64,000 nt of DNA from assembly GCA_009602735.1 (NCBI GenBank), contig WELA01002297.1, forward strand, positions 335,097 through 399,096, in the 5' to 3' direction. Below the pieces are notes generated by a model that searched no databases, was not told the origin of the DNA, and worked only from the letters and a program-made list of their open reading frames with translations. Each line of letters begins with the position of its first letter. Position 1 is the first letter of the stretch. Below, piece by piece: positions 4,391 through 53,312 of this stretch. The DNA is from Mesotaenium endlicherianum. Its lineage: Eukaryota. Made by a program: the position numbers and the translations under genes.

Positions 4391-4401
4391 ATAAGCAAAT
4401 T

Positions 4402-18308: not shown

Positions 18309-18327
18309 CTCCCTCTCAGCTCCTACT

Positions 18328-22650: not shown

Positions 22651-22670
22651 AATCGCCAGCTCCGATACTT

Positions 22671-30720: not shown

Positions 30721-31039
30721 AGTAGGACAAATTCCTGTAAAAATGGTGTGCCACAGTGAGGCAAGTTACAGAATTTTGGACTGTTGCGCCACCATCGAGT
30801 ACCCAAAACTCTATGCTACGCTGATGAGGAAGGAGAAGACAGCATATTCCACTATTAACATGCCACTACCCTTGATCTGGCAGCCAGACAGGATAGCAAA
30901 CCTAGAAGTAGTGAGTAACCTGGATCGTGGTCCGCAAGAGCTACTACTAATACCTTATCCAGCTACATCAGCACTAAACCTGATGCCAAGGGTGGAGCCG
31001 ATATCTCAAGCAACTGTCAGGATGAATAATTTATTCAGA

Positions 31040-31715
31040 GAGACTGGAGTGACGGTGTAGGAACTATTTGGAAGAATGAGATTGGGCACTATCGCACTGA
31101 TCCAAAGAGGCATTAAGGTATCAAAGGTCCTCTATGTGGACAATGACGAAGATGCCTTTTGCGCTTTTCAGGAAGCAATGGGCCAATTACGAACAATGTA
31201 TCATTTTTAGAACTTGGCACCTACCACTCAGCAGGTGGAGCGCATGGCTGATGGATGCATTATGAACGTCATGCTAGGAAGCTTGAACCCATACCAGATT
31301 GACTGGGTTTTTGTCGAATTTCCTTGGCAGCCATTCTTTAAGCTGGAAGCCGAAAGAGCTTCAGGGATCACCGAACGCAACACTGCGGAAAGATGGTGAA
31401 AATCATCCAGTTGCTACAGGAGCAACACTGACAGTTCTCACCAGTGTATGCGATTGAGAATGTGCATCCAAGACTGGACAACAAGAAGATGAAGCCTGGA
31501 GCTCCGTGGCTGAATTTTTACTCTACGTTAGGTCATCATGTTTTGCTGAACGATGCAAGGCACAGAGGATTGTCTCAACAAGCCAGGATATTGTGGACGA
31601 ATGGTATGCCCATCAAGCATTTGAGAGCTACGGAGACAATTTCACGACGACCTTCCAACTCAAAGAGCGTGGGAGAAGTACTGGGAGTAATCACCAGACC
31701 AGCATTCAGAAGAGA
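31040..31715 (+). pseudogene. C5 DNA cytosine methyltransferase domain (N-terminal part) in the pol of the outer Gypsy
   Basis: Motifs in canonical order: I GVTV*ELFGR, II KVLYVDND, IV IDWVFVEFPWQPF (from PCQ), VI YAIENV, VIII DARHRGLSQQARILWTN. Cut by the insertion at 31716. Confidence 0.8.
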
Positions 31716-32994
31716 TGTCGTGCGGTAGGAGATCGAGTGCGCATCATTGACACAAGCAATGCACAATAAGCAAGCAGGCTTTGCTGCAATGAAGTCTATG
31801 GTGCATGTGGCTTTATGGCCAAAAAGACGGTCAAGCGTCAATTGTTTTAATTCCGGGCGAGAGCTCCACAAGGAGTGTGTACTCTCCAGAGTGAGCACCT
31901 CAAGATTGTAATCTGGTAGGAAAACAACTAATGAAGTTTGGCCCAAAAGATCACTGGAAGCACTTCATGATCTTCAAGAGTTGTCCTATGGCAGGCTTTA
32001 AGCTGTGACTTTGCTCACCACTTGTGAAGTTCTTCAAGTGATTGGAAGCCAAGAGGGCTTGCTCTTTACAAGAGAGAAACTATGTGGTCCTGAAAACACA
32101 AGAGGTAAAAGTGTAAGCTTTACTGATAATCTCTGTGACTTACTACTGGCATAATGGGATTTCTAAAAAGATGTTTCTCCAGGGATATCTCTAGTACTTA
32201 TACTCCTGGAAACCCGGCGTCGTATGTGGCGGATCCGATGTATGCAGTTACTCTAGGAGGCTCTCCCATGTCCACTAATGTGTACGAAGCATGTACTAGC
32301 ACTCCTATAGGCTAAGCATAACTCAAGCCAATCAAAGCAAAGCACGTAGAATATGCTATGTGTCTCTCATTGGTGGAGCTTACCTTGGGTGATTCTACTT
32401 AGATAGCGCCTCAAAAGTGCCTCTGGAACTTGAGGAAGCTTCCTCTAGGAGTAAGTGATGCAGTCACCAAGTTATAGCCTCAAAGATGCACTTATACCAT
32501 GGAAATGCAAGGCTTATGTAGTCTGAGGGGCTCGCGGATTTTTGCATACAAAGCTAGGGGTCCTTGGGGTCTCGAATAGCCAACAATGTCACCTTTGGGT
32601 ACATTGAGTCACAAATCGGCCATTTGGTGTGACTCCGCTATGGGCCAAAAGGGGTGCAGACTAGATCGCGCCTATCTCGCTCGATACTTAACCAAATGAC
32701 GCAAAACCGGTGCCATTCGGAAGACGCTTCAACGCGCTACACTTTGGTGACTTGGAATTCTAGAAAAGGTCAATATATAGATGCGTAAGGTCAATGCAAA
32801 GTCGGTCTTCCTAGGTTGATGGTTCACACAAGTGGAGCTCAATTTTGTACGTCAACCTCGACTCCATAAATCATGATAGCTGTCGTGCGGTAGGAGATCG
32901 AGTGCGTATCATTGACACAAGCAATGCACAATAAGCAAGCAAGCTTTGCTGCAATGAAGTCTATAGTATAGCCAAAAAGACGGTCAAGCGTCAA
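31716..32994 (-). repeat. 3' terminal repeat block: A (31716-31841), B (31870-32878), GC, A (32881-32994)
   Basis: The two A copies match each other; B matches 50282-51291. Purine tract GGGAGGGG on the minus strand at 33006-33013. Confidence 0.9.
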
Positions 32995-33019
32995 ATACTT
33001 TATTTCCCCTCCCGAGCTC

Positions 33020-34500
33020 TCAGCCACGAGCTGATGGGCTGTGATCGCTCCCTAAAGCTAAAGCAGTGCAGTCACTGTAGAACTAGTCTCCAATTGGCAC
33101 GCGGGCCAGTGGCGGGTCAAGGCAGCCGATGTGGAAGCCGAGGTTGCAGTTGTCGCAGAGCAGCATCCTGGCCTCCTGGCCGGAGCTGTGGCAGATCTGG
33201 CACGCCCAGCCTTTGGGCGGCCGTGCATCGCGGGGACGAACCTGCATGTCAAGGTTAGGAAGGTGGCGTGGTCCATAGTTCTTCGTGTGGTCCTTGTGAA
33301 GACGGCCATCTGCGCCTTCCAATTCTAGAACTCCTGACGCCAAGACACGCTTGATGCGCAGGATGACGAGCGAACTACTGGTATCGAGAGTGTTCTTCGT
33401 CTAGCGTCGCAGGTACACGAAGTCACCTGCAAAGAACTGCAACACCCGAGGGCGGTAGGCTCCTCCACGAGTCATGGCATACCTTAGTGTGTTGCGGTGC
33501 TGAGCAATGCTAAGGTTGTCCATGGCCATGGGCATTAGGCGCTGAAAGAGCTGTGCACGCTGCCCGATAAGAGCGCTCCATGTCTCGAGACTGTCCAAGT
33601 CCAAGAAGTTCTCGGTCACGGTCCTGGCTGCTGCGGGCAGAAGTGGCTGTCGGCCGTAGAGAAGGAAGTAGGGAGAATGCGAGGCCAGGGAGGCTCGCTT
33701 ACTGAACCTGTACCCCATAGCCAACCATGGAAGGGCGTCGTCCCAGTGGGTGCTGTCGTGGGCCAGGCAGTACTTCCGCAGCCTAAGCTTGACGGTCTGC
33801 ACCATGCGCTCAGCAAGGCCGTCAGCCGAGGGATGGTCACGGGAGGTAGTGCGGTGGTCGATCATCGAGCGCTCCAGCAGCTTTTGAAAGCTGCCCTGGA
33901 ACTCCTTGCCTTGGTTGGTTAGGACCTCAGGGTAGCCGCCAAAGCGGCTAGGGACCTGGTCGAGGAAAGCTTGCGCAATCCCCTCACTGGCCTTGCTGGG
34001 CAACAATACAAGCTCAATCCATTCGAACATGTGCTAAATCATCACCAAGACATAGAGGTTGCCTCGGCGAGACTTGGGCAGCTCCCCAGCCAAGTCGAGC
34101 AACCATTTGTAAAACAGCCCCTGAATAGGGAGAGGGCTGAGAGCGACGGTGTGAGCTCTGAAGCTCGAGCGCACCCGGTCGCAAAGAGTGTAGCTGCTGA
34201 CGATGTCGGCGACGACCTTAGTCATGCCGTACCACCATTACTCAGCCTGGAGGAGGCTGAGAGTGCGCTTAACACCGAAGTGTCCAAGCGTCTCATGCAC
34301 ACGTCGCACCAGCTGGTTGTGTATAGCAAGCTCAGGAACCACCAAGACGCAGCCGTTCGCCATCACTGGCCGCATGCGCCCCTCCATGAAGACGAAGTCT
34401 CGGCTGCGCTTGAGGATACGATCGCGCTCGCGTGCAGTGATGCCTGGGGCCAACTCCTTGGCCATGACGTACTGCAGCACTGGGGCGTCGTCCCACACGT
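33020..34500 (-). pseudogene. Integrase and C-terminal PHD finger of the inner Gypsy
   Basis: HETLGHFG, LDLAGELP, TNQGKEF, DGLAERMVQT, and PHD CQICHSSGQEARMLLCDNCNLGFHIGCLDPPLARVPIGD*FYSDC. The frame ends at TGA 33020-33022; several internal stops. Confidence 0.93.
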
Positions 34501-35490
34501 CCTCTAGCCCGCGCTGCCAGCTGTTTTGCTCCTCCGCTGCAGCCAGTGCCAGTCGCCGAGTGGTGACAATCACCATGTCTAGGCTAGTGAGCCCTGCGGG
34601 CCGCACGTCGCTGTCAACGGTGAAGGCCAAAAACGCCGCCGCGTGCCAGGCCACTGGCTCTTCCTCATTGTGGCGGGCTACTGTGAGGTCCCTTGAAGAG
34701 GGCAGGGGGTTGCGGCTGAGGCCATCGACGTCCAGGTTCGTTGACCCTGGACGATGGTGCACGTCAAAGGTGTACACCTGCAAGATGAGCGCCCACCGTG
34801 CATACTTGCCTGTCAGGCCCTCTGACGTCATGAGCCACTTGAGTGGCTGATGGTCGGTGACCAAGCGGAAGTGGGTGCCATAGAGATAGTGCTTGAAATG
34901 CACAATCGCCCATACCGTTGCCAGGCACTCCCCCTCATAGGAGCCGTAGTTGCCCTCGGCACGATTGTTGCTGCGGCCGGCGTACGCCACCACATGCTCA
35001 AAGCCGTCATGCTCCTGCACCAGCACTGCTCCAAGCCCTGCCTGCAACCAGTCAGTGTGGAAATGGAAGGACTTCTGGTAGTCAGGCCGCTGTAGTACTG
35101 GGGCGCTCACCAACAGCTCCTTGAGCTTGTTAAACGCCGCCTGCTGCTCTGGTCCCCATACGTAGGCAACGCCCTTGCGTAGCAAGTCGTTGAGCAGCTA
35201 GGCCAGCTTGCTAAGCCCAGGTACAAAGCGGCGGTAGTAGTTGGCGATGCCAAGGAAGGCCCTCAGCTGCGAGAGGTCGGTCGGCGGCGGGATGCCAGTG
35301 ATGGCCGAGATCTTGACCAGCTGAGGGGCCAGGCCACTGAAAGACAGGAGATGCCCAAGGTACTCCACCTCTCGGGTCCCAAAGGTGCACTTGCCTGGAT
35401 GACACTTAAGCCCAACGGCCACCAAGCGGTCCAGGATTGCAGTGATGTGCACCACGTGCTCCTCAAACATCTCACTAAAGACGAGCACAA
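34500..35490 (-). pseudogene. pol: RT C-terminal part and RNase H of the inner Gypsy
   Basis: LKCHPGKC, VEYLGH, LRAFLGIANYYRRFV, HTDW, YAGRSNNRAEGNYGSYEGECLA, TDHQPL. The N-terminal RT including YxDD is deleted. Confidence 0.93.
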
Positions 35491-35835
35491 GGCCGTACGC
35501 GGGTCAGCGAGCGCGCCTCCCCGTCTTGCAATGGAGGAGCCCTGGTACTCCCAGCCAGCGATGATGAGGTTGATGGGCCCCAGGCGTGTGATGTGGTCGG
35601 CGGTGATGTCGCGGATGTCCATAGGCCAGTCACTCTGGGCGCGGTAGAAGGTGTGCTCAGGGAAGAGGTCCAAGAAACGCTCGTGGCACAAGGCCATTTG
35701 CCTGCGGGCCACCTGCTACGCCTCGCCATCAAGGTCCATATAAACGTACCGACGTACTGGGATGCCAGCCTAAAGGGTGGCCAGCAGCCCTGTCGCAATG
35801 TCGGCGAAGAGCTCGACAAGGACAATGCCGCCGGG
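35490..35835 (-). pseudogene. C5 DNA cytosine methyltransferase domain (motifs I-V) in the pol of the inner Gypsy
   Basis: One frame reading through two TAG stops: GIVLVELFADIATGLLATL*AGIPVRRYVYMDLD...PMDIRDI...PINLIIAGWEYQGSS...LADPRTAL, i.e. motifs I (FxG), II, III (DI), IV (GWxCQ, Cys now Tyr) and V (DPR). Confidence 0.85.
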
Positions 35836-38399
35836 ACGCTCGTCGAGCTGGGCGGTGTAGGTAGGCGTAGGAAGGGGGCGATAACCCATGGCAAGATTGC
35901 CTGCCTGCGCTGGTGGAGGGTAGGAGCGCTGAAGACTGTGCTGATGGGGCGCCATGCGGAGGGCTGCCACAGTACGCTCTGCGTAGTGACGGGTAAGCCA
36001 AGGAATGCGCTCGAGCAGCGGCTGCGGGCGAGCGGTGCGATCATGCGCCTGGTATGTGCGCCAGCGCGCGCGCGCATCCGGCAATGCCTCCTCGGGCATT
36101 GGGCGGGCCATAGCCTGTGCGTTGCGCACGCACTACAGCTGCCACCGGTCTCTCGCCCTGTGGTCGGCGTGGTGTGACGCGGCGTGGGCCAGCTGCTCTG
36201 TGGCTGTGCGCTGGTGCAGCTGGGGACGCTGATCGAAGTACAGATGCTGACGCTCAAGAAGATCCGCCTGGATGCAGACGGAGTGCTCGTCCCTGGCTGT
36301 TGCCTATCAAGGGCGGACAAGCTGACGTGGAGCGAGCTGGACTCGGGGACGCAGCGCCAAAAAGAGAAGCGAGCCGGACGCGCTCCTGTTGGCGGAGCTG
36401 CATGATCTCGGCGCGTATGGCGGTATTAAAGGGATGGCGGCGGCGGGGCCCGATAGTGGTACGGGCCACCTTATGAGGAGGTGACCCAAACGGCCCGTTG
36501 CCGGCTATGTGGCTGCGCGGGACGGCGGCAGGCCAGCCGGGCGTCGTCTGGTACAATGCGTGAGCTGCAGTAGTGGAGGAAGATTGAGCGTCATCATCTC
36601 CGGTGCGAAGATCACGCGGGCCGTTGTAAGGCGATGTGACTGAGCGCAAGCGCGTCTCGTGCAAGGGAGTGATGTCCCGCTCCTTGCAATGTGGAGTAAC
36701 CTCCTGTGCTCTCTTGTGCGTGTCGCGCAGAGGCGTGACCTTGCGAGCATCCCTGGCCTGCTCGCGGAGAGGGGTGAGCGCACGTGCGCGCCGGTCTGGC
36801 GGCATAGTGCCGCGTGCAAGGCGCAGAGCAGGACTAGCGTAGGGGGAAGGACCTGTACGCGGAGGGCCGAGGATGCTGCTCCTGGGTCTTGGCTGCCGAG
36901 CATGTACGGCTCCTAGGTCGGCGGCATGGAAAGGTGCCGTGGAGGCGACGCTGGCTGAGGCGCGAGCCAACCTGCTTGTGCCCAGGTTGTTGCCAGCAAA
37001 CAAGTGCGTGATGTCACGGCACTCGTTGCTGGTCAAATAATTGTGCTGTATGGGCCAACTAGGCCTGCCAGCACATCGATGGGCTCGACTGGGACTGGCC
37101 GTAGTCTCGTGCGAGAGAGTGCTGAAGCCGGGAGGCCCTGTTGGCTGGCGTTGGACGCGAGCCGTAGGCGTGGGCGGCGGTGGCTCCTCTAAAGGCTGGG
37201 TTGCTAGCTCCTCTGCGGCCTCCTGGGACCACTCGTGCCACTCCTCGTCCTCAAAGCTCTCCAACGACGCGTTGTTGGACATGCCTAGATACGCCGCCTG
37301 CCTCATAGCCTCATCCTCGGATGTGGTAGTGCGCGGCTAGGAGTCACCCGTCTTGTGCGACGGTGCAGGCAAGGGCGTTTGGGAGGCCATGCGGTACTGC
37401 ATGACAACTCCCACCGGAACGTCATGTTGTACGCGGATGTCCAATCTCGCAAGGGATCCACTCGCCGCTGGAGGCTGTGACCGGGGGGCGACTACAGCGC
37501 TGTCGTTGCGTCGTGGGCGTGCGCTGTAGCAGTGAAGGCAGCCGTGGCAATGGTGTGTGCCTCGACGGCGTCTGCCGCCATCTGATGCATCATGGCGTTA
37601 TGAGCAGCGTAGATCCGTACTGTCTCCCTGGCTTGTGCGGCGAGAGCGTCAGCCTGCTCCTGTAGCGTGAGGTGGAGCTCGGCGCCAGACAGCTTGGGCT
37701 CCTCTTCCTGTGTCTCAAGAAAGTCGGAGCCGACGGAGACCTCATCATCCTCGGCTCCTCCCTTATTGGCCTGAACCACGGGCCGGCCGTCGTCCTGCTC
37801 CATGCAGGGTTACGCCGTACGCTTGTACGCTTAGTTCGACTAGTACGCTAGTTCGCTTAGTACGGTGTTCAAAAAAAAGGACTAGTTCGCTTAGTACGCC
37901 AAGTCACGACGGCGTCGACGTCAAGTAGCTACGACGTCGACGTCTGATATCGGTCGCACGTGTACAAATACCACGTCGTGTCAGACTTTTGTTTTTGTTC
38001 AAAATGGCAAATTTCTTCCGTGCGCGTTCGGAATTTTTTACCTGCCCGATTTGAAACGATGATTAGCGAAAACTTGATCAAACTATACCATCAGAGCGTC
38101 ACCGGTCGGGTTTGAACTCCCGCCACCAGGTGCAGGGTTCAGTGAGCTATCCGAAGTGCCGTGCACGATTCTATGGCAGGCCAGTCTTTGTTGCATTCTA
38201 GTTAGCATTCACTATCTGCTGAGAAAAAAGAATTATGATAAATCACGTATCAGGTGCAACCCAACGGATTTGATCCCCCGTCACCGTATGCAAGGAGCGA
38301 TGCTTTACCACGCTGCCACACGCTGAATCTTACGTAAGCTGCTTTTTGTTTGGAAAATATAAATACCCGTTGTCCATGAATAATGTCGACGGCATTTAT

Positions 38400-39300
38400 C
38401 GTTCCTATTCTGGGAGGGCTGCTTAGCAGACCTGTTTTTTGTACTTCCTAATTGATTTATTAGTTGAACAAGAACAGTCAGGAGTATCATTACTACTTTA
38501 TCAAGTAGAATAAGCTTGAAGGAAGAGGTGTATACATGATTCAAACTCTTAACAAGCATGTGTAAGAAATAAGAAGTTCTTATATATGCCATATTTAAGA
38601 GTGACTGAAATTTGATTTCTCGACAAAACGTCTAACCATGGGAGGGCCGCTTAGCAGAGCATGTTTTCTGTACTTTCTAACTATTTTATGAGTTCAATAA
38701 GAAGGCTTAGTAGTATCATTGCTTCTTAATGGAGTATAATAAGCTTCAATGAACAAGTGTGAAGAAGATTCAAACTCTTAAGAAGCATGTATAACCACCA
38801 ACAAGTACCTATAAATGCTACGTTTAAGAGTGATTGACTTATTCACAAAAAGTCTAACACTAAGAGGGCTGCTTAGCAGAGCATATTTTTGTACTTTGTA
38901 ATTATTTTATTAATTCAATAAGGAGGCTTAGAAGTATCATTGCTTCTTAATGGAGTACAATAAGCTTAAATGAAGAAGTACAAAGACGATTCAAACTCTA
39001 AACAAGCATGTATAAGAACTAAGAAGTACCTATATATGCTACTTTTAAGAGTGAGTGAAATTTGACTTATCGACCAAAAGTCGAACACTGAGACAGCCGC
39101 TAGGCAGAGCATTGTTTTTGTACTTCTTATGTTATTTATTAGTAAAATAAGAAGGCTTAGCAATATCATTGCATTTTGATCGGGTATAATAAGCTTCAAT
39201 GAAGAAGTGTAAAGAAGATGCAAACTCTTAACAAGCGTGTACAAGATCTAAGAAGTACCTATAATTGCCAAATTTAATAGAGAGTGCAGTGTGACTTAGC
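38400..39300. repeat. About four AT-rich tandem repeats of ~225 bp in the hAT 3' region
   Basis: Recurring GGCTGCTTAGCAGAGCAT...ATAAGCTTCAATGAAGAAG...TTCAAACTCTTAA units starting near 38414, 38643, 38864 and 39093. Confidence 0.85.
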
Positions 39301-39362
39301 CAAAAAAAGTGAGTGAGAATACATGCTACCTCTACTACATATATGTTAGCTGACAGACACAT

Positions 39363-40733
39363 CTAGTAACCGATCTCTCTAGGCCTCCTTCTTCCTCGAG
39401 CTAAAACACTAGGTCGCTCCTCCAACTCCTCTTCCTCCACCTCCTCATCCTCTACCTCTATCTCTTGTTCCTCACTCAACGAGGCATACATGGCAAGATT
39501 GAGACCCTCCTCTTCAGGTGTCTCCAAGAACTCCGCTTCTTCAACCCATGGAGTGGCGCCAACACTTGGTCCAAGGAAGTCCAAGCTCTTCTCCTGAAGT
39601 CTCAACATAGAATGCACGTACACCAACTTCTTTGCTCTAGTAGGGAGCAGCCTATTGCGAATCGGACTATGAACAAACCCGTACTCAGACCAATTTCTCT
39701 CACATGCAGCTGCTGAACCAGGTTGTGACAATATTCTCATAGCAAGAAGCTGAAGGTTAGGACAATGACTTCCGTATGTTTCCCACCACTTGTGAGCAGG
39801 CATCATAGTCTTATTAGCCTTGCAAACATCATCGCCAAAAATGTCACCGCTCTGCCGGTAGAGTGCCAACTCTCGATCCACCAACGCTCGATCAAGCACA
39901 CTCCCTCCGACAAGGGTATTCCGCACGTTGGACCAATCGGTTAGTAGACACTTCTCAACTGCCCAAGACTCATGGTCTTGGAATTCGGGGTCCAGATAGT
40001 AGCCTGTAGCCAAACAAAGTCAAGAAGCACACTCAGTATATGAGAACGCAATGCACATCACAAAAAAGAGAGCAATAACAATAACAAGCACAATAACAAT
40101 AACAATGATCAACTCACAATAACAAGCATGCAAGAGAACAGCAGCCGCCGAGCAAGAAAGGTGAGCAACATCAAAATAGACTTTTACCCGCAGAATGTAG
40201 GGGGCTGTGAAGTTGGTCCCAGCGAGCCTTCACGTCCTTCTTAACTTGGGTTCTTTGTGTCGGTTTGAGTCCTTCAACCTCAAGCACATGCTCTTTAATG
40301 GCACTCATGCGAGCCCAGATCTTCCCGAGAGAAGGTTGTGGAGAGTCGACTAGTCGAAGGAGAACTACGATCAGCTCACACACAGCTATCCATACCTTCA
40401 CTTGCTCCCAAAGTTCATCGTCGCGAACTAGGTCTCTAATCTCCGTAGCCTCACCTACACAACCATTCTTTGCCGCCCACTCAAACCATCTTCTTTCAGA
40501 CACCATAGCTTGTAAGGTATCCCTTACAACGNTACAACGTCTTTGCAAGCAAAGGAAGTTACTAGCAAACCTCGTGGGCCCTGGCTTCAACAAATCCAAT
40601 TTATTTCCAAGCCTTGCCCCATGCTCACGGTAAAGAGCGTGAGGCATGTGGTGGTTTGCAACAAATTGGACCAAGTGCTTGAAGCTATCAATTATGCCCT
40701 CGAGCTCTTTTATCTTTCCTATGTCTTTCAACA
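39363..40733 (-). CDS. hAT transposase, C-terminal two exons (intron about 40006-40188); N-terminus lost in the gap
   Basis: KPGPTRFASNF...RWDQLHSPLHSA|GYYLDPEF...WWETYG...LAMRILSQPGSAAACERNWS. No stops apart from the n-join at 40532. Confidence 0.85.
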
Positions 40734-41283
40734 NNNNNNNNNNNNNNNNNNNNNNNNNNNNNNNNNNNNNNNNNNNNNNNNNNNNNNNNNNNNNNNNNNN
40801 NNNNNNNNNNNNNNNNNNNNNNNNNNNNNNNNNNNNNNNNNNNNNNNNNNNNNNNNNNNNNNNNNNNNNNNNNNNNNNNNNNNNNNNNNNNNNNNNNNNN
40901 NNNNNNNNNNNNNNNNNNNNNNNNNNNNNNNNNNNNNNNNNNNNNNNNNNNNNNNNNNNNNNNNNNNNNNNNNNNNNNNNNNNNNNNNNNNNNNNNNNNN
41001 NNNNNNNNNNNNNNNNNNNNNNNNNNNNNNNNNNNNNNNNNNNNNNNNNNNNNNNNNNNNNNNNNNNNNNNNNNNNNNNNNNNNNNNNNNNNNNNNNNNN
41101 NNNNNNNNNNNNNNNNNNNNNNNNNNNNNNNNNNNNNNNNNNNNNNNNNNNNNNNNNNNNNNNNNNNNNNNNNNNNNNNNNNNNNNNNNNNNNNNNNNNN
41201 NNNNNNNNNNNNNNNNNNNNNNNNNNNNNNNNNNNNNNNNNNNNNNNNNNNNNNNNNNNNNNNNNNNNNNNNNNNNNNNNNNN
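40734..41283. other. Assembly gap (550 N)
   Basis: Run of N. Confidence 1.
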
Positions 41284-41886
41284 ACATTGTTAGCACTAGT
41301 GAGCTAAGCCTAATTGAAGATCCATTACCAGAACCAACCACAAACAAACGGAATAAAAAACTTCCATAAACAAAACATGAATACATATACAAGTAACAAG
41401 AACAAGCGAGCGAGGAAGCGAGGTCATGAAAACGAGGTAAAGAAACTTACAAGAATGATCAGCAGATGTAGAATGAACAACAAGAGGCTACAGAGCTGTT
41501 AAGTAGGCCTCAAGTTTGGCTTGTAAATATTCGCGGCTGCACTACACCGAAGCAGATGCGTATGTGCAAGAGAGGGAAATTGGAACCAATGTCATGGTGG
41601 CCCAAATATTGGTGAAACTTTCACTTGTTTTTTTATGTTCCCGCCGTTGCTGATAAAACTTGTCTGCATGTACTGTCATGTTTCATCGCTTCGATCGACG
41701 ACAATTTTAAACTAATAAGTGAAACGGAGCGTGCAGTGCCAGACGTGAATACGTCGGCGCGTCACTGGGCGGCGCGCACGAGTTGAAAATTATTCGTACG
41801 CTTAGTACGTGCGTACTGGTTCAGTACGCTTAATTAAGCGTACGAGGGTCGGCCTGTACGGCGTACGGCGTAACCCTGGCTCCATG

Positions 41887-42450
41887 AAGCCGTAGAGGGC
41901 GAACTCAGCTGAGCGATAATCCACGATGTCTAGCGGCACGGATGCAATGCGGGTCCCCCTGATTGCTAGTCAGGTCTGTAGAAGACCTGCTCCACCCAGT
42001 TATCTACTGCGCCGAAAGGAAAGAGAACGTCTTGGCCAAGGAGCACGTCGAAGGTCTCAGAGCGGGTGACCAACGCGTGCCGGTGGATGGTAGTCTCATC
42101 CGAAGTGCCGGGCCGAAAGGTGAAGCGAAGGGCCAGCCGCGTGCGCTCGGTGACGATCTCAGACGTGCCAGCCGCAGTGTTGATCCGCGTCGACGAATCC
42201 TCTAGGTCCGCTGACGAGAGGCCCAACTGGCGGAAGTAGCGCAGGCTGATGAGGACTGGTTGGGCGTCAGTGTCAAACATGAAGCGTTGCGAGGCCTGCG
42301 TGTTGACTAGCACGATCCCCTGCGAATTATCCAAAAACGCAGCGTTAGGCGTGCTGATCGTCCTGCGCTCATGCGCAGGTCGTGCGAGTGCGCAGAGCAC
42401 CGCGGCTGCCACATCGGGCGTTGGCCTGCCGTCAAAGGCGCGCTAGCTAG
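41887..42450 (-). pseudogene. Aspartic protease of the inner Gypsy (repeated at 46007-46570 and 56111-56674)
   Basis: FMFDTDAQPVLIS (DTGA-like), INTAAG, FDVLLGQD. Confidence 0.85.
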
Positions 42451-44879
42451 CCTTGCGCAACTAAAGCAGTAGCTGGGTTGCCTGTCGCGTGGCCTCTTTT
42501 GACAGGCCGAGCTCCGCAAAGGAGACGGCTGGCATCCGGTGTAGCGCCAGCGAGATGACCTCGGCGTTGAGATGCACTGTAGTCATCGGCGAGGCAAGTG
42601 CGCGAGGTGCGAGCGCAGCTGGCTCTGTTGGCATCTCTAGCACGCAAAAGGAGCGGGGCAGAGGCGGCGCCTCCTCTGTGCGGCGGCCTTGGTCTGGTCC
42701 GCTGTGCTTCTGCGCCATTGCCGGTCGCCCGACTGTCGCCACGAGTGTGCACTTGCGTCTTGCGATGCCCGCTGCTGTGCGGCTGCCCAATGGCCGTGTG
42801 CGTGTGCAGCACGCCGAAACGGAGCCCGGCGCTGCTGCGAGAGCGGGAGTGGCAGCTGCTGGCGCAGCTGCAGGTGCTAGCGCAGCAGCCGAAGCTGGCG
42901 TAGCTGGCACTCGCGCAGCTGCGTGCGCAGGCGAGACGGCGAACGCCTTGGCTGGCGCAACTGCTGGCGCGAGCGCAATTGTTGCTGGCGCAGCCGTGTG
43001 CGCTGGTGCAGCCGCCAGTGATGGAGCTGCTGCAAGCGCGTACGTAACAACTGCTGGCGTGGCTGCCGACGCTGGCGCGTGGGCGGACGCGGGCGCTTCC
43101 TCAAACGCGGGCGTAGGCGCTGCTGGCGCAGGCGCGTGCGCAGCAGCTAAAAACGCGGCCGTCACTGGCGCAGCTGCGTGAACAGTTGCAGCTGCTGGCG
43201 CGGGTGCTGGCACGCTTGACGCTAGCATGTTTGGCGCTGGCAAGCCCACCGCTTGTGCGGCAGGTGTCTAGTGGGCTGGCGCTCCTGTCGTTGGCGCAGC
43301 GAAGGTGGCGAGAGCTAGTGCGGCTGCTCCTGAGCATGCCTGCGCAGCTGCCGGCGCAGGTGCCAGGCCTGCTGGCACAGCTGTCAGAGCTGGCGCCGCA
43401 GTGACCCACCTGGCGCTGGCGCTGTTAGTAGCGCTGGCTTTGGTCCTCCTGCAGCTGGCGCCTCTGCGGACGCTGACGCCTCTGCAGGAGCGGCTGCGGA
43501 TGTTAGCGCAGCTTCGAGCGTAGGCTCTTTGGCTGCTGGCGCGAACGCTGGAGCTTGCGCAGGCTTGGCTGCTGGCCGGCTGACAAGTTGCGCCTTGAGG
43601 TTGCTCCTGAGCCTGCTTGGTCGCGTCGCCCGGACGGTGTCGGTGTCTGCCTTGACTGCATGCTGTCCGTGGCGCCCTTCAGATGGCGCGTGCGCTTGCC
43701 AAGACCCTCACCACGCTTATTGTGCAGGCCTGAGGGTTTTGTGCGCAGCCAGGCTTTAAGCCCTGGCTGTGCTTAGCTGTGTACGTGCCGTCAATGCTCC
43801 GAATGGCGGTCCGGCCACATAGCGCAGTTGGGGATGCCCCCCCCTGATTGAGGATGGCGTTCACGGCCGTTAGATCCGCGCTGGCTAGGCTGGGCTGCGT
43901 GCGCGTGCCAAGTGGCAGCACGTGTGCGCAATTGCTATACGCAGCTGCTGACGTGGCTGCCGTGAGGTGGTTGCGTGGCTGGCGGCTGAACAAGCCTCGC
44001 AGTGCTGTGCGCGGCGTGAGCGGGCGCGTGCGGGCATGTGCAGGTGTGTAGCTACCGTTAGGCAGAGGTTCGCCAGTCGCGCACGCGACAAGTGGCGACA
44101 CCTGCTGGAACCTGTTGCTTGCGGCAGCCAGCAGGGGGCGGACATCGGGAGGTTGCCGGTCGGTGCGCAGGTCTATGCATGGGCGGGCGACATGTAAGAC
44201 GTGGGACGCTGCACCCGTAATAGCCGGCTGGCAGGCCCGCCCTATCGCGCCACTTGTTGCTCCGCAAGCTGCAGACAACTCTGCTGGCATCAGCAGGACA
44301 ACGGAGGCCAGAGGAGCTGCGAGAGCTTGCGCTGGCTGCCCTGGCGGGAGTGGCTGCCTGTCGGGAGGCGTGTTTGCGGCGAGGGATGGCGAGACCGTGC
44401 GGGCTTGCGGCCTCCCATCTGGCAGCCTGTCCAGAAGGAAGCCGTTGCTACTGGCAACTGTCAGTGCGACGTGCGCAGAGCTGGCAGGAGCATCTGCGCA
44501 GACGTCTGCCGCGCTGGCCGCAAGAGCTTCGTCGAAGGGCGGGCGTGTGCGGGGCTGCAACGTTGCTGTGGTGCCAAGTGACAGCCTCTAAGGCTGCCCC
44601 GTGTTGGTGCTGCAAATGTGCGCAGAGGCTGCGCGGACGCCGGCTGTCAAAGCTGGAGCGTCGGTCGGCGGGACGCGTGCAAAGAGGGCTTTGCACGCGT
44701 CGTAACTGTCGGCGGCAACTACGCCACGGAGTCTGGCGATCTCCGCGTTGGCCTCCACGAGGGCGTCGCTGACATCATCGAAGCTGCATTAGTCGGCTCC
44801 GAGGGTTAGCGCGTCGTCCATGGTGGCCGTGGCTGCCGTCATTGAGGGGCATCCACCCGTGCGAGGGTTACGCATGCCN

Positions 44880-45245
44880 GAGCCCCGACAAATGCAAGAG
44901 AGGGACTGGCAGCCAGCCCCAACTAAAATCTTAAAATAGCAAGTAAGGGGCTGGCAGCCTGCCCCACAAAAGCAAGCAGGGGGCTGGCAGCCAGCCCCGA
45001 CAAAAGCAAGCTCAGGGCTAGCAGCCAGCCCCACAAAAGCAAGTAGGGGGCTGGCAGCCAGTCCCAACAAACGCAAGAGAGGAACTGGCAGCCAGCCCCA
45101 ACTAAAATCTTACAATAGCAAGAGGCTGGCAACCAGCCCCACAAAAGCAAGCAGGAGCTGGCAGCCAGCCCCGACAAAAGCAAGCTCAGGGGTGGCAGCC
45201 AGCCCCACAAAAGCAAGCAAGGGGCTGGCAGCCAGCCCTGACAAG
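44880..45245. repeat. ~32-bp tandem repeat (GGGGCTGGCAGCCAGCCCCACAAAAGCAAG) from the hAT interior; also at 49444-49536
   Basis: About 11 units running continuously into the duplicated hAT 5' end; bounded by n joins. Confidence 0.85.
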
Positions 45246-45403
45246 CCAAATAGATCCCCCATGCCAAAAAAGACAGCAGAAAAGAGGAGGGGAGAGGCGC
45301 ATGTGACCTGATGCACTTGTCTGTGGACGGTGGCACGTCGATAGGCGCTAGATGGGTTCAACTTTGTGCTCTTTGTGTAGGCCTGCCTCTCACATGAACA
45401 TTG

Positions 45404-48400
45404 ACATTGTTAGCACTAGTGAGCTAAGCCTAATTGAAGATCCATTACCAGAACCAGCCACAAACAAACGGAATAAAAAACTTCCATAAACAAAACATGA
45501 ATACATATACAAGTAACAAGAACAAGCGAGCGAGGAAGCGAGGTCATGAAAACGAGGTAAAGAAACTTACAAGAATGATCAGCAGATGTAGAATGAACAA
45601 CAAGAGGCTACAGAGCTGTTAAGTAGGCCTCAAGTTTGGCTTGTAAATATTCGCGGCTGCACTACACCGAAGCAGATGCGTATGTGCAAGAGAGGGAAAT
45701 TGGAACCAATGTCATGGTGGCCCAAATATTGGTGAAACTTTCACTTGTTTTTTTATGTTCCCGCCGTTGCTGATAAAACTTGTCTGCATGTACTGTCATG
45801 TTTCATCGCTTCGATCGACGACAATTTTAAACTAATAAGTGAAACGGAGCGTGCAGTGCCAGACGTGAATACGTCGGCGCGTCACTGGGCGGCGCGCACG
45901 AGTTGAAAATTATTCGTACGCTTAGTACGTGCGTACTGGTTCAGTACGCTTAATTAAGCGTACGAGGGTCGGCCTGTACGGCGTACGGCGTAACCCTGGC
46001 TCCATGAAGCCGTAGAGGGCGAACTCAGCTGAGCGATAATCCACGATGTCTAGCGGCACGGATGCAATGCGGGTCCCCCTGATTGCTAGTCAGGTCTGTA
46101 GAAGACCTGCTCCACCCAGTTATCTACTGCGCCGAAAGGAAAGAGAACGTCTTGGCCAAGGAGCACGTCGAAGGTCTCAGAGCGGGTGACCAACGCGTGC
46201 CGGTGGATGGTAGTCTCATCCGAAGTGCCGGGCCGAAAGGTGAAGCGAAGGGCCAGCCGCGTGCGCTCGGTGACGATCTCAGACGTGCCAGCCGCAGTGT
46301 TGATCCGCGTCGACGAATCCTCTAGGTCCGCTGACGAGAGGCCCAACTGGCGGAAGTAGCGCAGGCTGATGAGGACTGGTTGGGCGTCAGTGTCAAACAT
46401 GAAGCGTTGCGAGGCCTGCGTGTTGACTAGCACGATCCCCTGCGAATTATCCAAAAACGCAGCGTTAGGCGTGCTGATCGTCCTGCGCTCATGCGCAGGT
46501 CGTGCGAGTGCGCAGAGCACCGCGGCTGCCACATCGGGCGTTGGCCTGCCGTCAAAGGCGCGCTAGCTAGCCTTGCGCAACTAAAGCAGTAGCTGGGTTG
46601 CCTGTCGCGTGGCCTCTTTTGACAGGCCGAGCTCCGCAAAGGAGACGGCTGGCATCCGGTGTAGCGCCAGCGAGATGACCTCGGCGTTGAGATGCACTGT
46701 AGTCATCGGCGAGGCAAGTGCGCGAGGTGCGAGCGCAGCTGGCTCTGTTGGCATCTCTAGCACGCAAAAGGAGCGGGGCAGAGGCGGCGCCTCCTCTGTG
46801 CGGCGGCCTTGGTCTGGTCCGCTGTGCTTCTGCGCCATTGCCGGTCGCCCGACTGTCGCCACGAGTGTGCACTTGCGTCTTGCGATGCCCGCTGCTGTGC
46901 GGCTGCCCAATGGCCGTGTGCGTGTGCAGCACGCCGAAACGGAGCCCGGCGCTGCTGCGAGAGCGGGAGTGGCAGCTGCTGGCGCAGCTGCAGGTGCTAG
47001 CGCAGCAGCCGAAGCTGGCGTAGCTGGCACTCGCGCAGCTGCGTGCGCAGGCGAGACGGCGAACGCCTTGGCTGGCGCAACTGCTGGCGCGAGCGCAATT
47101 GTTGCTGGCGCAGCCGTGTGCGCTGGTGCAGCCGCCAGTGATGGAGCTGCTGCAAGCGCGTACGTAACAACTGCTGGCGTGGCTGCCGACGCTGGCGCGT
47201 GGGCGGACGCGGGCGCTTCCTCAAACGCGGGCGTAGGCGCTGCTGGCGCAGGCGCGTGCGCAGCAGCTAAAAACGCGGCCGTCACTGGCGCAGCTGCGTG
47301 AACAGTTGCAGCTGCTGGCGCGGGTGCTGGCACGCTTGACGCTAGCATGTTTGGCGCTGGCAAGCCCACCGCTTGTGCGGCAGGTGTCTAGTGGGCTGGC
47401 GCTCCTGTCGTTGGCGCAGCGAAGGTGGCGAGAGCTAGTGCGGCTGCTCCTGAGCATGCCTGCGCAGCTGCCGGCGCAGGTGCCAGGCCTGCTGGCACAG
47501 CTGTCAGAGCTGGCGCCGCAGTGACCCACCTGGCGCTGGCGCTGTTAGTAGCGCTGGCTTTGGTCCTCCTGCAGCTGGCGCCTCTGCGGACGCTGACGCC
47601 TCTGCAGGAGCGGCTGCGGATGTTAGCGCAGCTTCGAGCGTAGGCTCTTTGGCTGCTGGCGCGAACGCTGGAGCTTGCGCAGGCTTGGCTGCTGGCCGGC
47701 TGACAAGTTGCGCCTTGAGGTTGCTCCTGAGCCTGCTTGGTCGCGTCGCCCGGACGGTGTCGGTGTCTGCCTTGACTGCATGCTGTCCGTGGCGCCCTTC
47801 AGATGGCGCGTGCGCTTGCCAAGACCCTCACCACGCTTATTGTGCAGGCCTGAGGGTTTTGTGCGCAGCCAGGCTTTAAGCCCTGGCTGTGCTTAGCTGT
47901 GTACGTGCCGTCAATGCTCCGAATGGCGGTCCGGCCACATAGCGCAGTTGGGGATGCCCCCCCCTGATTGAGGATGGCGTTCACGGCCGTTAGATCCGCG
48001 CTGGCTAGGCTGGGCTGCGTGCGCGTGCCAAGTGGCAGCACGTGTGCGCAATTGCTATACGCAGCTGCTGACGTGGCTGCCGTGAGGTGGTTGCGTGGCT
48101 GGCGGCTGAACAAGCCTCGCAGTGCTGTGCGCGGCGTGAGCGGGCGCGTGCGGGCATGTGCAGGTGTGTAGCTACCGTTAGGCAGAGGTTCGCCAGTCGC
48201 GCACGCGACAAGTGGCGACACCTGCTGGAACCTGTTGCTTGCGGCAGCCAGCAGGGGGCGGACATCGGGAGGTTGCCGGTCGGTGCGCAGGTCTATGCAT
48301 GGGCGGGCGACATGTAAGACGTGGGACGCTGCACCCGTAATAGCCGGCTGGCAGGCCCGCCCTATCGCGCCACTTGTTGCTCCGCAAGCTGCAGACAACT

Positions 48401-48998
48401 CTGCTGGCATCAGCAGGACAACGGAGGCCAGAGGAGCTGCGAGAGCTTGCGCTGGCTGCCCTGGCGGGAGTGGCTGCCTGTCGGGAGGCGTGTTTGCGGC
48501 GAGGGATGGCGAGACCGTGCGGGCTTGCGGCCTCCCATCTGGCAGCCTGTCCAGAAGGAAGCCGTTGCTACTGGCAACTGTCAGTGCGACGTGCGCAGAG
48601 CTGGCAGGAGCATCTGCGCAGACGTCTGCCGCGCTGGCCGCAAGAGCTTCGTCGAAGGGCGGGCGTGTGCGGGGCTGCAACGTTGCTGTGGTGCCAAGTG
48701 ACAGCCTCTAAGGCTGCCCCGTGTTGGTGCTGCAAATGTGCGCAGAGGCTGCGCGGACGCCGGCTGTCAAAGCTGGAGCGTCGGTCGGCGGGACGCGTGC
48801 AAAGAGGGCTTTGCACGCGTCGTAACTGTCGGCGGCAACTACGCCACGGAGTCTGGCGATCTCCGCGTTGGCCTCCACGAGGGCGTCGCTGACATCATCG
48901 AAGCTGCATTAGTCGGCTCCGAGGGTTAGCGCGTCGTCCATGGTGGCCGTGGCTGCCGTCATTGAGGGGCATCCACCCGTGCGAGGGTTACGCATGCC
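45404..48998. repeat. Near-identical duplicate of 41284-44878 (offset 4120), probable assembly artefact
   Basis: Identical ORF sets at a fixed offset; the first copy is bounded by the N gap and an n at 44879. Confidence 0.9.
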
Positions 48999-50281
48999 TC
49001 GCTGTCCTATTGCTGGCGCGGGGCCGTCGCGAGCGCGTCCGTTCTCAACGTCGCGCTTCTTTTGCAGACATACGATCTGCAAGTGACCGGCCTTGCCACA
49101 GTAGGTACAATTGCCGGGCTTGCCATTCTGCGCAACTGTGCAGGCCTGGCGGGAGTGGCCTGTCTTCCCGCAAGACCAACAGGGGTCACTCGTCGTGGCG
49201 GCCATGGAAATGCGGCCATGCGTAGCTCCGCGCTGCTGAGTCGGCTGGGGCAGCTGAGAGCGCTGAGTCTGCTGCTGCTGCTGGGGCTGGCGAGCCAGAG
49301 CTGGGCCCATTGTAGAAGATGGCAGCATCGAGGACTCCTGGCGTACGCCTGTTGATGCGAGGTCCACACGGTCGCTAATGTTGCTTCGTGCGGCAGCCAA
49401 GCTCTGCTTCTCAACTGAGAGGTAAGCGTCCTCCAGTGAGTANAGCTGGCAGCCAGTCCCACAAACGCAAGAGAGGGACTGGCAGGCAGCCCCAACTAAA
49501 ATCTCAAATTAGCAAGTAAGGGGCTGGCAGCCAGCCNCAATGTGATAGATGAGGGGGGCCATGGCCCTCTCCCTCACTTGTGGCTCCACGGCACGCAAGA
49601 AGATCTCTGCTGCCTCACGGTCGGTGACGGTGCCAACGTCTCGGTGAAGGTGCGTCAATCGGCGGTACATCATGCGAATAGTCTCGTTCTTGCGGCGGTA
49701 GAAGTGGTGCAGCTCGTACACCTTCTCTTTGGTCGCGGCTTGAAACTCCTTTCGGAGAACGTCCCAGAAGGCCTTGATCGGATCTGCGAGAAGGGTCTCC
49801 ACTGGGGGTTCCCCCACAAGCTCTGTGCGTGCGTATATCTTGTCACCCTTCTCGCGGAAGGTGTCACGGGCCTCGTAGAGGAGATAGCGCATGAGCGTAT
49901 AGAACACGTCACGCTTAGTGAGCGCGGGCGTCTTAAGCCTTGCGGTCACAAACTTAGCATCGAACTCTGAGATTGTGTCGTCCAGATCACAGGTTCCTGG
50001 TCTGCCGCTGAAGCGGAAGAGGGAGGAACTGTCAGCCTTGACCTCTTGGTCACCTGCCATGGGATACCAGGAATTGTGGTGAGCCCACTGGGAAGTTGGC
50101 TGAGGAACAATCACAAGAGGTACGAGAGCTGGCTCAGGGGGTTCAGTGACAGTACTGAGATCGGAGTTTGAGTCTTCTCCACTAACCCCTTTGTAGTAAG
50201 GCTGGTAAGAAAGCCCACTACGAGTAGGCATACGCTGAAGATTCTAATTGCTTGCAGGCAAAGAGAGATCTTTTTAGAAGT

Positions 50282-51291
50282 AAGGAGTGTGTACTCTCCA
50301 GAGTGAGCACCTCAAGACTCTAATTTGGTAGGAAAACAACTAATGAAGTCTGGCCCAAAAGATCACTGGAAGCACATCATGATCTTCAAGGGTAGTCCTA
50401 TGGCAGGGTTTAAGCTGTGACTTTGCTCACCATTTGTGAAGTTCTTCAAGTGATTGGAAGCCAGGAGGGCTTGCTCTTCACAAGAGAGAGACTAAGTGGT
50501 CCCGAAAACACAAGAGATAAAAGTGTAAGCTTTACTGATAATCTCTGTGACTTACAACTGGCATAATGGGACTTCTAAAACGATCTTCCTCTAGGGACAT
50601 CTCTAGTACTTAATACTCCTGGAAACCCGGCGTTGTATGCGGCGAATCCGATGTATGCAGTTACTCTAGGAGGCTCTCCTATGTCCACTAATGTGTACGA
50701 AGCATGTACTAGCACTCCTGTACGCTAAGCATAACTCAAACCAATAAAAGCAAAGCACGTAGAATATGCTATGTGTCTCTCATTGGTGGAGCTTACCTTG
50801 GGTGATTCTACCTAGATAGCGCCTCAAAAATGAATCTGGAACTTGAGGAAGCTTCCTGTAGGAGTAGGTGATGCAGTCACCAAGTTATAGCCTCAATGAT
50901 GCACTTAAACTATGGAAATGCAAGACTTATGTAGTCTAAGGGGTTTGCAGATCTGTGCGTACAGAGCTAGGGGTCCTTGGGGTCTCGAATAGCCCACAAT
51001 GTCACCTTTGGGTACATTGAGTCACAAGTTGGCCATTTGGTGTGACACCGCTAGGGGCCAAAAGGGGTGCGGACTAGATCGCGCCTATCTCGCTCGATAC
51101 TCAACCAAATGACGCAAAACCGGTGCCATTTGGAAGATGCTTTGACGCGCTACACTTTGGGTACTTGGAAATCTAGAAAGCGTCAACAAATAGATGCATA
51201 AGGTGAATGCAAAGTCGGTCTTCCTAGGTTGATGGTTCACACAAGTGAAGCTCGGTTTTGTACGTCAACCTCGACTCAATAACTCATGACA
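50282..51291 (-). repeat. 5' terminal repeat B of the inner Gypsy (duplicated at 60299-61308, partial at 55321-56102)
   Basis: About 1010-bp diverged direct repeat of 31870-32878; the gag ATG is only 50 bp downstream. Confidence 0.92.
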
Positions 51292-51620
51292 GAGATACAT
51301 ACCCGCAGTTTAGTATCAATGAGCCGAGACAACCAAGAGTGGTTCTGCCTACTTTCACAGCTTACCCAGAGTCACGTGCTTTCACGAGGAGGAGCTGGAA
51401 TGGTAAGAGCTCTCGTTGCAGACTCTCTTTGGCGAGAACCATGGGCTATGGAGAAGGGGAGTTGTTTGGGACTCCCAGAGACGATCGTGGTGAACATCAT
51501 CCGAAGACTGGGAAGAACTGGTGCAGCCAAGGTGTTTGGAACAAAATTGGACAACACACTATGACCTGGTTGCTGGAGACCGTTATGACTTGGCAACAGA
51601 TTACTTTTGCCAACAAGCCC
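51292..51620 (+). pseudogene. C-terminal part of the outer Gypsy DNMT (variable region and motifs IX/X-like); duplicated at 61309
   Basis: DTYPQFSINEPRQPRVVLPTFTAYPESRAF...LARTMGY...IGQ, in frame with 31444-31715 once the inner element is removed. Confidence 0.75.
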
Positions 51621-52694
51621 ATGCCCAAGCCCCCGACGGTGATGTGCGAAAGGTGGGTGGTGCCTACTTATGACCAGAGGGTGGGTCGAAATGTTCGGCA
51701 ATGCCGTAACATTACTCTTATGTGCAAAGATGCAGCTGGAGAACCTAGAGGTACCCACACACCACTCAAAGGAGCCGGAATGGCTGAATTAATACGCTGC
51801 CGTGAATTGATTGAACACATAGACAGGCGAATGGCTGTGGCTTCGGGAAGATGCAATACGCCCATGGCAGAAGGACTCCCTAGCACTTCCGCTCAACCAT
51901 CAGGCAAGGGAGCAGCTGTTCAAGCTCCTCCGCCTGCGCCATCAGTCTCAAAACCTGACGACAAGTCAGTCTCGCCACCTTGGCTAACAGAGGCACCAGC
52001 TGGAATGCTGAGAGGGCCAAAACCCAAAAAAAATGAAACGCCCATGCGTTTGTTAGCACCAAGACAGGAGGGAACACTAGGAGGGGGTGGAAATTCTGAT
52101 ACAAACACCAGTCCGCGAGCAACCGATATTGGACATCATTGGGAGGCAAGCTTGAGTAGCTGGAAAGCTAACCAATGCTGCCTATCATCTTCACCATAAC
52201 AAGAATGGTCAAATAAAACTCCATATTGGGGTCCTTCAAATGACAAGAATCATCGTGGGCGTCAGTGCAACCTTGGCGAATGGGCCGAGGCAAGCAGTCA
52301 GAAGTCTGCAAACTTTGGAGGGTCTGGGAAGACTATATGCTTAAAACTAACTATCAAAAGGCACAACGAGGTGGAAGAAAAAGGGCGTCAAGAAACCGAC
52401 GCAAAGCTGACCAATGAAGAACGCCAGATGGCGACAGTCTGCTTAATTGCTGGAAAAACTACCGTGCAAATTATGGATCAGCTGCTAGAGGCAGATGCTG
52501 ATGGACGCAAAGAAGGGAAGGTGATGCAAAAGGTGCACTTCCTACAGTATGCAATTATCAACATGGCTAACCTTAACACAGAAGATGACGAGGAACCGTC
52601 ACCATCGGGAGTAGAGGAGCCAGTTGGAGCTGAGGCAGAAACGCCTGCGGCGCCAAAATTCAACTTGCTTGAGCTCGCACATGGAGGGGACTTG

Positions 52695-53312
52695 GGGAGT
52701 TTTTCAAATGACTATGGATAAAGTGCTACAGGGGCTAGACTTTGCAAAACCATACAATGATGATGGGAGTGATGTTGAGTGAGTCAATTGAGCTCCACCT
52801 CAAGCACTTGAAAGAAGTGTTTCAACGCCTGGAGAAATATCAGATGACGCTGCACCCAGGAAAGTGCAGGTTCTTTGAAGCACACGTGCCTCACTTAGGA
52901 CACTAGATTGGGAACAATGTTATGTCTCCTCAGGCTGTAAAGATTGAGGTCATCTACAAGATACCTGCACCTGCAAATGTGTCTAAGCTAGGAGCTCTTC
53001 TAGGGCTAAGCAGATGTTATCGCAAAGTTGTGAAGAATTATAGTAGAACTACTAAACCCTTGACAAATTTTGTAAAAAAGGATATACTATTTGTGTGGAT
53101 AGAAGCCCAAGAGAAGGCCATTAAAGAGCTCAACGAGAGGCTGATGACAACCCCAGTCTTGCGCACGCAAGAGGACTGTAAGCCGTTCAACCTGTACACA
53201 GTTTGGAATCGTTTGAGAATTGGCCCAGTACTCACTCAGGCCAAAAGCCCTGGAGAGGGTACGTAATTGCCTACGCTTCCCCCTCAAACAACAGGGTTGA
53301 GAGCAACTACTG
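52695..53312 (+). pseudogene. pol: RT/RNase H remnant of the outer Gypsy; duplicated at 62712-63329
   Basis: FQMTMDKVLQGLDFAKPYNDD, LHPGKCRFF, LGALLGLSRCYRK, and IAYASPSNNRVESNY, then truncation. Confidence 0.88.

Follow-up and report, generated by a model that had tools for sequence, protein, structure and literature searches.

We found that a Gypsy retrotransposon of Mesotaenium endlicherianum carries split terminal repeats, and that this layout is real and lineage-wide. The element occupies positions 31716–51291, on the minus strand, of a 64,000-nt stretch of DNA (assembly GCA_009602735.1, contig WELA01002297.1, positions 335,097–399,096 of the forward strand), hereafter the window. In its own sense it reads B, open reading frames (ORFs), polypurine tract (PPT), A, GC, B and A, where A and B denote the two repeat parts; copies are numbered in this order (B1, A1, B2, A2). 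Sequence comparison supported two additional features, namely a site through which the element RNA likely primes its own copying, as in Tf1, and a putative palindrome of integrase attachment (att) sites inside the repeat. For these elements, which combine a C5 DNA methyltransferase (DNMT) and a PHD finger, we regard the following scheme as moderately probable: self-primed RNA would be copied into linear DNA with long terminal repeats (LTRs) of the form A-NN-B, the ends of this DNA would be joined, and integrase would cut the palindrome of the 5′ LTR.

The split-repeat order, the TG...CA ends and the GAGA target-site duplication had been proposed from the sequence of the window alone, and self-alignment together with sequence inspection confirmed them. 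In element sense the first bases are TG (51291) and the last are CA (31716). The B copies (50282–51291 and 31870–32878) were 92.6% identical, with 7.3% divergence over 1009 columns. The A copies matched at 85% in an initial alignment (32878–33007 versus 31713–31854), and a later alignment, which had a single 12-nt gap, gave 6.3% divergence over 127 columns. The original prediction had recognized both A copies, but had drawn them 11 nt too short (true starts are 33005 and 31852), and the 28 nt it placed between B2 and A2, although present, are really 11 nt of A and a 17-nt filler. Its 50-nt leader between B1 and the gag ATG stood, and the list of N positions of the stretch contained no join within either terminal block. 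Both flanks of the element matched consecutive residues of a single DNMT protein in one frame (P0014, amino acids 151–267 and then 274–306), and the 8-bp duplication of a nested hAT transposon straddles the large N gap. The two ends therefore belong to one insertion.

Contigs and reads of public runs stood in for genome-wide counts of the family in M. endlicherianum. One of these runs, X1, possibly comes from the sample that was assembled and is not independent, while X5, X10 and X13 came from other studies. The family is large, since 5,931 contigs of X1 aligned over 4.5 kb, mostly 90–99% alike. Thirty-five family contigs departed at exactly 51291 (agreement 0.37) and continued in unrelated sequence. 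The junction of B with the leader was bridged by two diverged contigs, and PPT-A joins were present in contigs of other family copies. In most family reads B was joined directly to A (loose ends at 50281 in X5, X10 and X13), and B-A joins recurred in data from three other studies, of which two were RNA.

Further analysis covered relatives from metagenome contigs, where a scan yielded 485 relatives, the best 80 of which were retained. With A and B of loci L021 and L008 as queries, classification by hand of 43 loci, merged by flank, gave 34 distinct 3′ ends; the remaining loci were too short, had no 3′ end or ended within repeats. These 3′ ends read A-NN-B-A (14), A only (19) or A-NN-B (1). Both ends were available for 13 relatives, eight of the long form and five of a short form, B-ORFs-A. 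The eight long forms are independent insertions of two further families, each with a 4-bp duplication that was perfect or had one mismatch. In all, 12 of the 13 two-ended relatives had such a duplication (six perfect, six with one mismatch) and one had none; a 5-bp duplication fitted worse and was discarded. All 12 duplications differed in sequence, and thus do not represent homology to the junction spacer. The start of B (TGTCATG) and the end of A (CACGACA) were common to both families and the window, but the repeats were otherwise different. The short form was at least as frequent as the long form (L003, L007, L028, L051 and L019, plus 14 more 3′ ends). Four of its five two-ended examples had a 4-bp duplication, two perfect and two with one mismatch. 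With no R region at the 3′ side, it would be a dead end. The insertion represented by L019 and L026 lacks a clean 4-bp duplication and may be aberrant; in L026, TCTAGC precedes B and AC-TCTAGC follows A, as if spacer bases had been retained (L019, ~3230 and 12292; L026, 3597).

These data bear on the simplest alternative, that an ordinary element with B+A LTRs was changed here by a separate 5′ deletion and 3′ duplication, or that the layout is an assembly artefact. It could appeal to the duplication, at ~100% identity between N joins, of the interior and of the entire 5′ block. However, the layout recurred in the eight two-ended insertions, which came from other assemblies and differed in their duplications, as well as in the M. 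endlicherianum family reads. The B-leader junction was bridged by diverged contigs, the B-A and PPT-A joins were found in other copies and studies, and the GAGA duplication is accompanied by colinear flanks. Besides, no 5′ B had an A before or after it. We consider this explanation highly improbable for this copy, and for the lineage it is refuted.

The original prediction had also stated that the element lacks a primer-binding site. This held for a TGG-type (tRNA) site after B1, but a self-complementary primer site is present. The 13 bases following B1 pair at 12 of 13 positions with a site inside B, located ~30 nt below a TATA-like box. Among 13 L021-type 5′ ends, pairing was 13/13 in six, 12/13 in four, and 11 and 10 in one each, with L066 failing; in 12 of the 13 there was one site below TATAAA. 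For L008-type elements, two of five 5′ ends paired at 11/13 and the other three were at control level, control 13-mers pairing at most at 8–10 positions (at most 10 for the window controls). The paired sequence differed in each of the three families. In Tf1, the RNA's initial 11 bases pair with the primer-binding site and are cut off as primer (PMC7175516). Similarly, the transcript 5′ end predicted here from TATA spacing is complementary to the site after the 5′ repeat. Minimum-free-energy folds of the window element and of L055 both paired the 5′ end with the primer site, and the L055 fold was more stable than shuffled sequences (z −3.8). Priming without tRNA, proposed at the outset, was thus supported by the pairing in three families and by the folds, and can be specified as Tf1-like self-priming. 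RNA data were suggestive with regard to the start. In the stranded run X10, the sense depth of family members rose from ~15 to ~90 (~5-fold) below 50574, and 11 molecule ends were found at 50553, ~20–30 nt downstream of the predicted start. RNA depth was near zero across the leader and gag. The RNA runs hold only diverged family members (mostly 90–95% alike or less), and these observations concern the family rather than expression of this copy. With regard to the other transcript end, A begins with AATAAA- or ATTAAA-like words (33005–33000 and 31852–31846, minus strand), and A2 might provide a poly(A) site, given such a word and family RNAs that cross B into A. The L021-type A has no AATAAA- or ATTAAA-like word.

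In the proposed scheme, transcription would begin ~30 nt below the TATA box, at the site that pairs with the bases after B1, and the RNA would be cleaved into a primer as in Tf1. A starts exactly after the PPT and B stops exactly before the primer site, so that standard LTR reverse transcription would produce a linear cDNA with an LTR of the form A-NN-B at each end. The A-start and B-end, which would be the cDNA ends, lack TG and CA. Inside the LTR, CACGACA and TGTCATG lie head to head, and their spacer was exactly 2 nt in all 15 distinct junctions of relatives (GC and AC five times each, AT twice, and GT, AA and CT once each; 13 are GC or its transition products). If both strands were cut after CA, in a staggered fashion, two CA-3′OH ends with a 2-nt 5′ overhang would result, which would correspond to the processed ends that a DDE integrase normally uses. 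It has been reported that HIV-1 integrase can cut the palindrome at an internal LTR junction (PMC1905944, PMC4372172). The B2-A2 boundary would then represent the join of the right and left cDNA ends, made either before integration (a 2-LTR circle) or during repair afterwards, and joined cDNA cut at the 5′-LTR palindrome would insert B-ORFs-A-NN-B-A with a 4-bp duplication. The short form might come from an opened one-LTR circle, from cutting of both palindromes or from later recombination between A1 and A2. We speculate that the 5′-LTR palindrome would be the one used because it may become double-stranded long before the 3′ one.

A different possibility is that there is no joined intermediate, and that template jumps of reverse transcriptase (RT) build a linear DNA running from the start of B to the end of A, whose ends integrase processes normally. 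Ordinary TG...CA ends, 4-bp duplications, a single orientation of the product and the fact that no circle was observed would all be explained. Yet the plus strand begins at the PPT, that is, at A and not at B, and precise trimming of the left A would call for an additional mechanism, which is again a cut at an internal palindrome. This made template jumps a rather improbable account.

The B2-A2 boundary was informative as well. Unlike the PPT-A1 boundary, which is fixed in relatives, it was clean in ~9 of 14 elements and showed 1-nt changes, filler or deletion in the other five (read by eye), with the filler of 17 nt in the window. In seven of ten elements, A2 was closest to its own A1 (19 candidates each), and divergences of A and B were similar. 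Joining of cDNA ends fits these data, as fillers, 1-nt changes and deletions are what end-joining would leave and A2 is nearest its own A1. The same boundary is treated differently by PAT/TOC1-like copying, in which RNA would extend into A2, the B2-A2 join would be inherited through RNA, redundancy of A would close a circle and integrase would open the rebuilt A-GC-B. The repeat order is that of PAT, Ngaro and VIPER (PMC4157794, PMC6681497), family RNAs run from B into A, most B-A joins are clean, and a form with B-A-B upstream would not be expected if only the newly made junction were cut. However, the conserved self-primer site after B1 would have minus-strand synthesis begin at the 5′ end and pass to B2, so that A2 is bypassed, and copy-specific fillers or deletions in 5 of 14 joins are not what inheritance through RNA would give. 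We therefore consider such copying unlikely, but worth keeping in mind. Integration from a joined or circular intermediate, close to what the original prediction proposed, is the reading that fits best, and we regard it as moderately probable.

Several observations weigh against self-priming followed by end-joining and a palindrome cut. Since a free 2-LTR circle would contain the palindrome twice in identical form, the mirror form B-A-B-ORFs-A should be among its products as well. This form was absent, A being upstream of B in none of 18 distinct 5′ ends, compared with eight long forms among the two-ended copies; a symmetric circle does not explain this, and a bias is therefore needed. Family RNAs read through B into A, so that a transcript can contain part of A2. 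The self-primer site was missing from B1 in three of five L008-type copies and in L066, and the fold of the window element was not more stable than shuffled sequences (z −0.9). No listed contig bridged A1-GC-B2 with 31 letters on each side, the best reaching 28 beyond A. Finally, the circle, the cDNA ends and the integrase cleavage are deduced from sequence, and none was observed.

The minus strand of the element encodes gag, including a zinc knuckle, then protease, what is left of a C5-methyltransferase, RT's C-terminal end, RNase H, integrase and a PHD finger (coordinates of all features are given in the table below). The Ty3/Gypsy domain order gag-protease-RT-RNase H-integrase was found here and in L055. 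The integrase has an HHCC finger and a DDE core, PF00665 was matched in L055 and L008, and the aligned catalytic residues were D-N-E in this copy and L008 and D-D-E in L055, P0001, P0005 and P0021. TG...CA ends, a short target-site duplication and a PPT are also as in Ty3/Gypsy, but two complete terminal LTRs are not present, as the 5′ end has B only and the 3′ end A-NN-B-A. Thus, its proteins make the element a Gypsy, but its layout is not that of a canonical LTR element. A C5 DNMT within Gypsy Pol, which is a remnant here, was found in L055 as PF00145 and RT in one ORF. Other family copies read YIDD beyond the break at 35488 (loose ends of contigs). Tyrosine recombinase was not found among all 11 ORFs of at least 90 amino acids in L055, nor in the one ORF each of L021 and L008 that was scanned, and all seven interiors examined for a recombinase lacked a minus-strand ORF of at least 200 amino acids. 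Membership in the tyrosine-recombinase elements (PAT/TOC1/Ngaro) was rejected, since the split repeats match but a DDE integrase takes the place of the recombinase. In a FastTree tree, built without curated reference families (Phygy, Selgy and Chlamyvir were left out), the split-repeat elements placed in it and PHD-bearing proteins formed one clade (support 100) apart from the chromodomain rows. Chromovirus membership was rejected as well, with a PHD finger in place of the chromodomain and a clade separate from the four chromodomain rows. Named homologues were from Sphagnum, Calypogeia, Marchantia, Coleochaete, Closterium, Klebsormidium and chlorophytes. In protein P0024, a PHD-Gypsy polyprotein branching beside the clade, a Dam-type adenine methyltransferase family (PF05869) replaces the C5 DNMT.

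Features of the split-repeat Gypsy element and its boundaries in the window.
Feature	Position	Strand	Evidence or remark
Target-site duplication GAGA, 3′ side	31712–31715		Partner 51292–51295; colinear flanks
A2, terminal A copy ending CACGACA (right integrase-type end)	31716–31852	−	Alignment
17-nt filler at B2-A2 junction, similar to sequence just upstream of PPT	31853–31869	−	Alignment
B2, second B copy, begins TATCATG (mutated TGTCATG)	31870–32878	−	Alignment
Self-primer site within B2	32173–32159	−	
TATA-like TATAAG within B2	32202–32197	−	
2-nt spacer GC of head-to-head CACGACA-GC-TGTCATG, putative internal att palindrome	32879–32880	−	
A1	32881–33005	−	Begins directly after PPT; likewise in relatives
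PPT, GGGAGGGG	33006–33013	−	
Integrase C-terminus with PHD finger	33086–33400	−	PF00628, E 9e-10
Integrase zinc finger and DDE core, broken	33401–34320	−	Stops; second catalytic D is N
RNase H and linker	34238–35197	−	PF17917, E 1e-32
RT C-terminal remnant	35201–35488	−	Upstream part including YIDD deleted
C5 DNMT domain, N-terminal remnant	35464–35916	−	tblastn of P0014 (PF00145), 40% identity, E 4e-22
Nested hAT DNA transposon	37805–41878	−	Terminal inverted repeats; 8-bp duplication GCTCCATG
Near-identical duplicate of 41284–44878	45404–48998		99.97% identity
Aspartyl protease	46089–46562	−	PF13975, E 6e-7; second copy 41969–42442
gag with zinc knuckle, broken by N joins	48912–50243	−	Unbroken duplicate 59013–60260
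Primer-binding site, ACTTCTAAAAAGATC	50267–50281	−	Pairs with site inside B, not tRNA CCA end
B1, B copy at the 5′ end, begins TGTCATG (left integrase-type end)	50282–51291	−	
Predicted 5′ end of the transcript, with self-primer, within B1	50571–50585	−	~30 nt below TATTAAG 50615–50609
Target-site duplication GAGA, 5′ side	51292–51295		Partner of 31712–31715

The copy at 31716–51291 is dead, as it has stops, a ~1.5-kb deletion that took away the DNMT end together with most of RT, a D-to-N change in integrase and the nested hAT. N joins or gaps are located inside it at 40532, 40734–41283, 44879, 49443 and 49537. The near-identical duplicates listed in the table lie between N joins, and the 5′ end with its flank (49538–53983) recurs at 59555–64000 (100%). 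Most simply, all these duplications are assembly artefacts and the interior is mis-assembled. An insertion of short tandem repeats (44880–45403 and 49444–49536) breaks gag in two assembled copies and is missing from the third (59013–60260), possibly reflecting a polymorphic insertion or alternative assembly paths.

Other mobile elements were also present in the window. The element is inserted in the DNMT domain of an older DNMT-Gypsy of its own kind, located on the opposite strand (29113–31715 and 51292–53310, plus), which retains a gag zinc knuckle, the DNMT and an RNase H remnant. A third member of the clade is represented by an integrase-PHD fragment (4352–5501, plus). No recognizable A/B end motifs were found at this fragment (4350–5500) or at the interrupted outer element. 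A different Gypsy RT is located at 1297–2613 (minus), and a decayed Copia-type element at ~17800–23150 (minus) has 478-bp LTRs at 94% identity. Three related hAT ends or copies (37805–41878, ~23900–28066 and from 54936) have the common terminal repeat CAGGGTTACGCC, and internal tandem repeats of 220–230 nt are found at 38411–39310. Besides, there is a long unbroken DUF7796 ORF at 7646–9178 (minus; E 3.5e-71).

It has long been asked whether DDE retro-integrases can use circles as integration precursors; in HIV, circles are a side route at best. If our reading holds, this lineage uses the circle route routinely, would be a natural case of this long-debated route and offers a defined substrate (CACGACA-GC-TGTCATG) together with its enzyme. 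It would also mean that no tyrosine recombinase is needed for split repeats of the DIRS/PAT type to derive from an ordinary LTR. A broader proposal, that in a widespread Gypsy clade of the green lineage the integrase sites have shifted from the cDNA ends into an LTR palindrome and that end-joined (circular) cDNA would be the clade's obligatory substrate, as in IS3 and IS30, seems to us evenly poised between right and wrong. From a practical point of view, annotation programs that depend on two complete TG...CA LTRs would overlook this family, which is present in mosses, liverworts and algae, or would date it wrongly.

The DIRS-like layout is already in print, in one legend. For KnitGypsy-Dnmt3 of Klebsormidium nitens, such a repeat arrangement is stated in the legend of Fig. 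4c (de Mendoza et al. 2018, PMC5890265), and the present element is an added dead member of this barely described kind. It resembles KnitGypsy-Dnmt3 and streptophyte Gypsy-DNMT3 in its Gypsy domains, the C5 DNMT in Pol and the DIRS-type split repeats. In contrast, the termini, target-site duplication, primer site, palindrome, short form and mechanism described here are absent from the accessible text of that paper, although its figures may show the termini. The homologues of the DNMT region of one relative included a K. nitens protein (E 1e-28, 34% identity) that is not labelled KnitGypsy, and the tree has no labelled reference. The name KnitGypsy-Dnmt3 was found only in PMC5890265 within the literature searched. 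PMC12344493 and a 2026 DAM-LTR preprint mention streptophyte Gypsy-DNMT3 or cite PMC5890265, and their accessible portions do not describe the repeats. The literature reached by our searches, which did not extend to subscription papers and Repbase reports, gave no description of this lineage's termini, of its priming or of its route of integration.

The element is similar to PAT, TOC1, Kangaroo, Ngaro and VIPER in having A1-ORFs-B1-A2-B2 split repeats, in which the junction of the two ends also occurs internally (PMC4157794, PMC6681497). It differs from them in that it encodes a DDE integrase and lacks a tyrosine recombinase, has TG...CA termini flanked by 4-bp duplications that vary, and carries both a PPT and a self-primer site. 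Tf1/sushi elements and Tcn1 carry two full LTRs in the standard layout. These elements have chromodomains, whereas the clade described here has a PHD finger and is separate (support 100). Complementarity of the transcript 5′ end to the primer site, the lack of a tRNA primer and the Gypsy domain order are common to our element, Tf1/sushi and the plant Tcn1 chromoviruses (PMC7175516, PMC6317226). With HIV-1 and foamy-virus integrases acting on 2-LTR junctions it has in common a DDE integrase and an internal palindrome of two att ends (PMC1905944, PMC4372172, PMC1180852). In those viruses, however, the palindrome consists of ligated cDNA ends and serves a minor route, whereas here it lies within the LTR, away from the cDNA ends, contains a spacer of 2 nt and would offer the sole route. 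In IS3, IS30 and IS21, a DDE enzyme acts on head-to-head ends that are 2–3 bp apart in a circle junction; these are bacterial DNA transposons whose transposase makes the junction, while here the junction is carried by the LTR.

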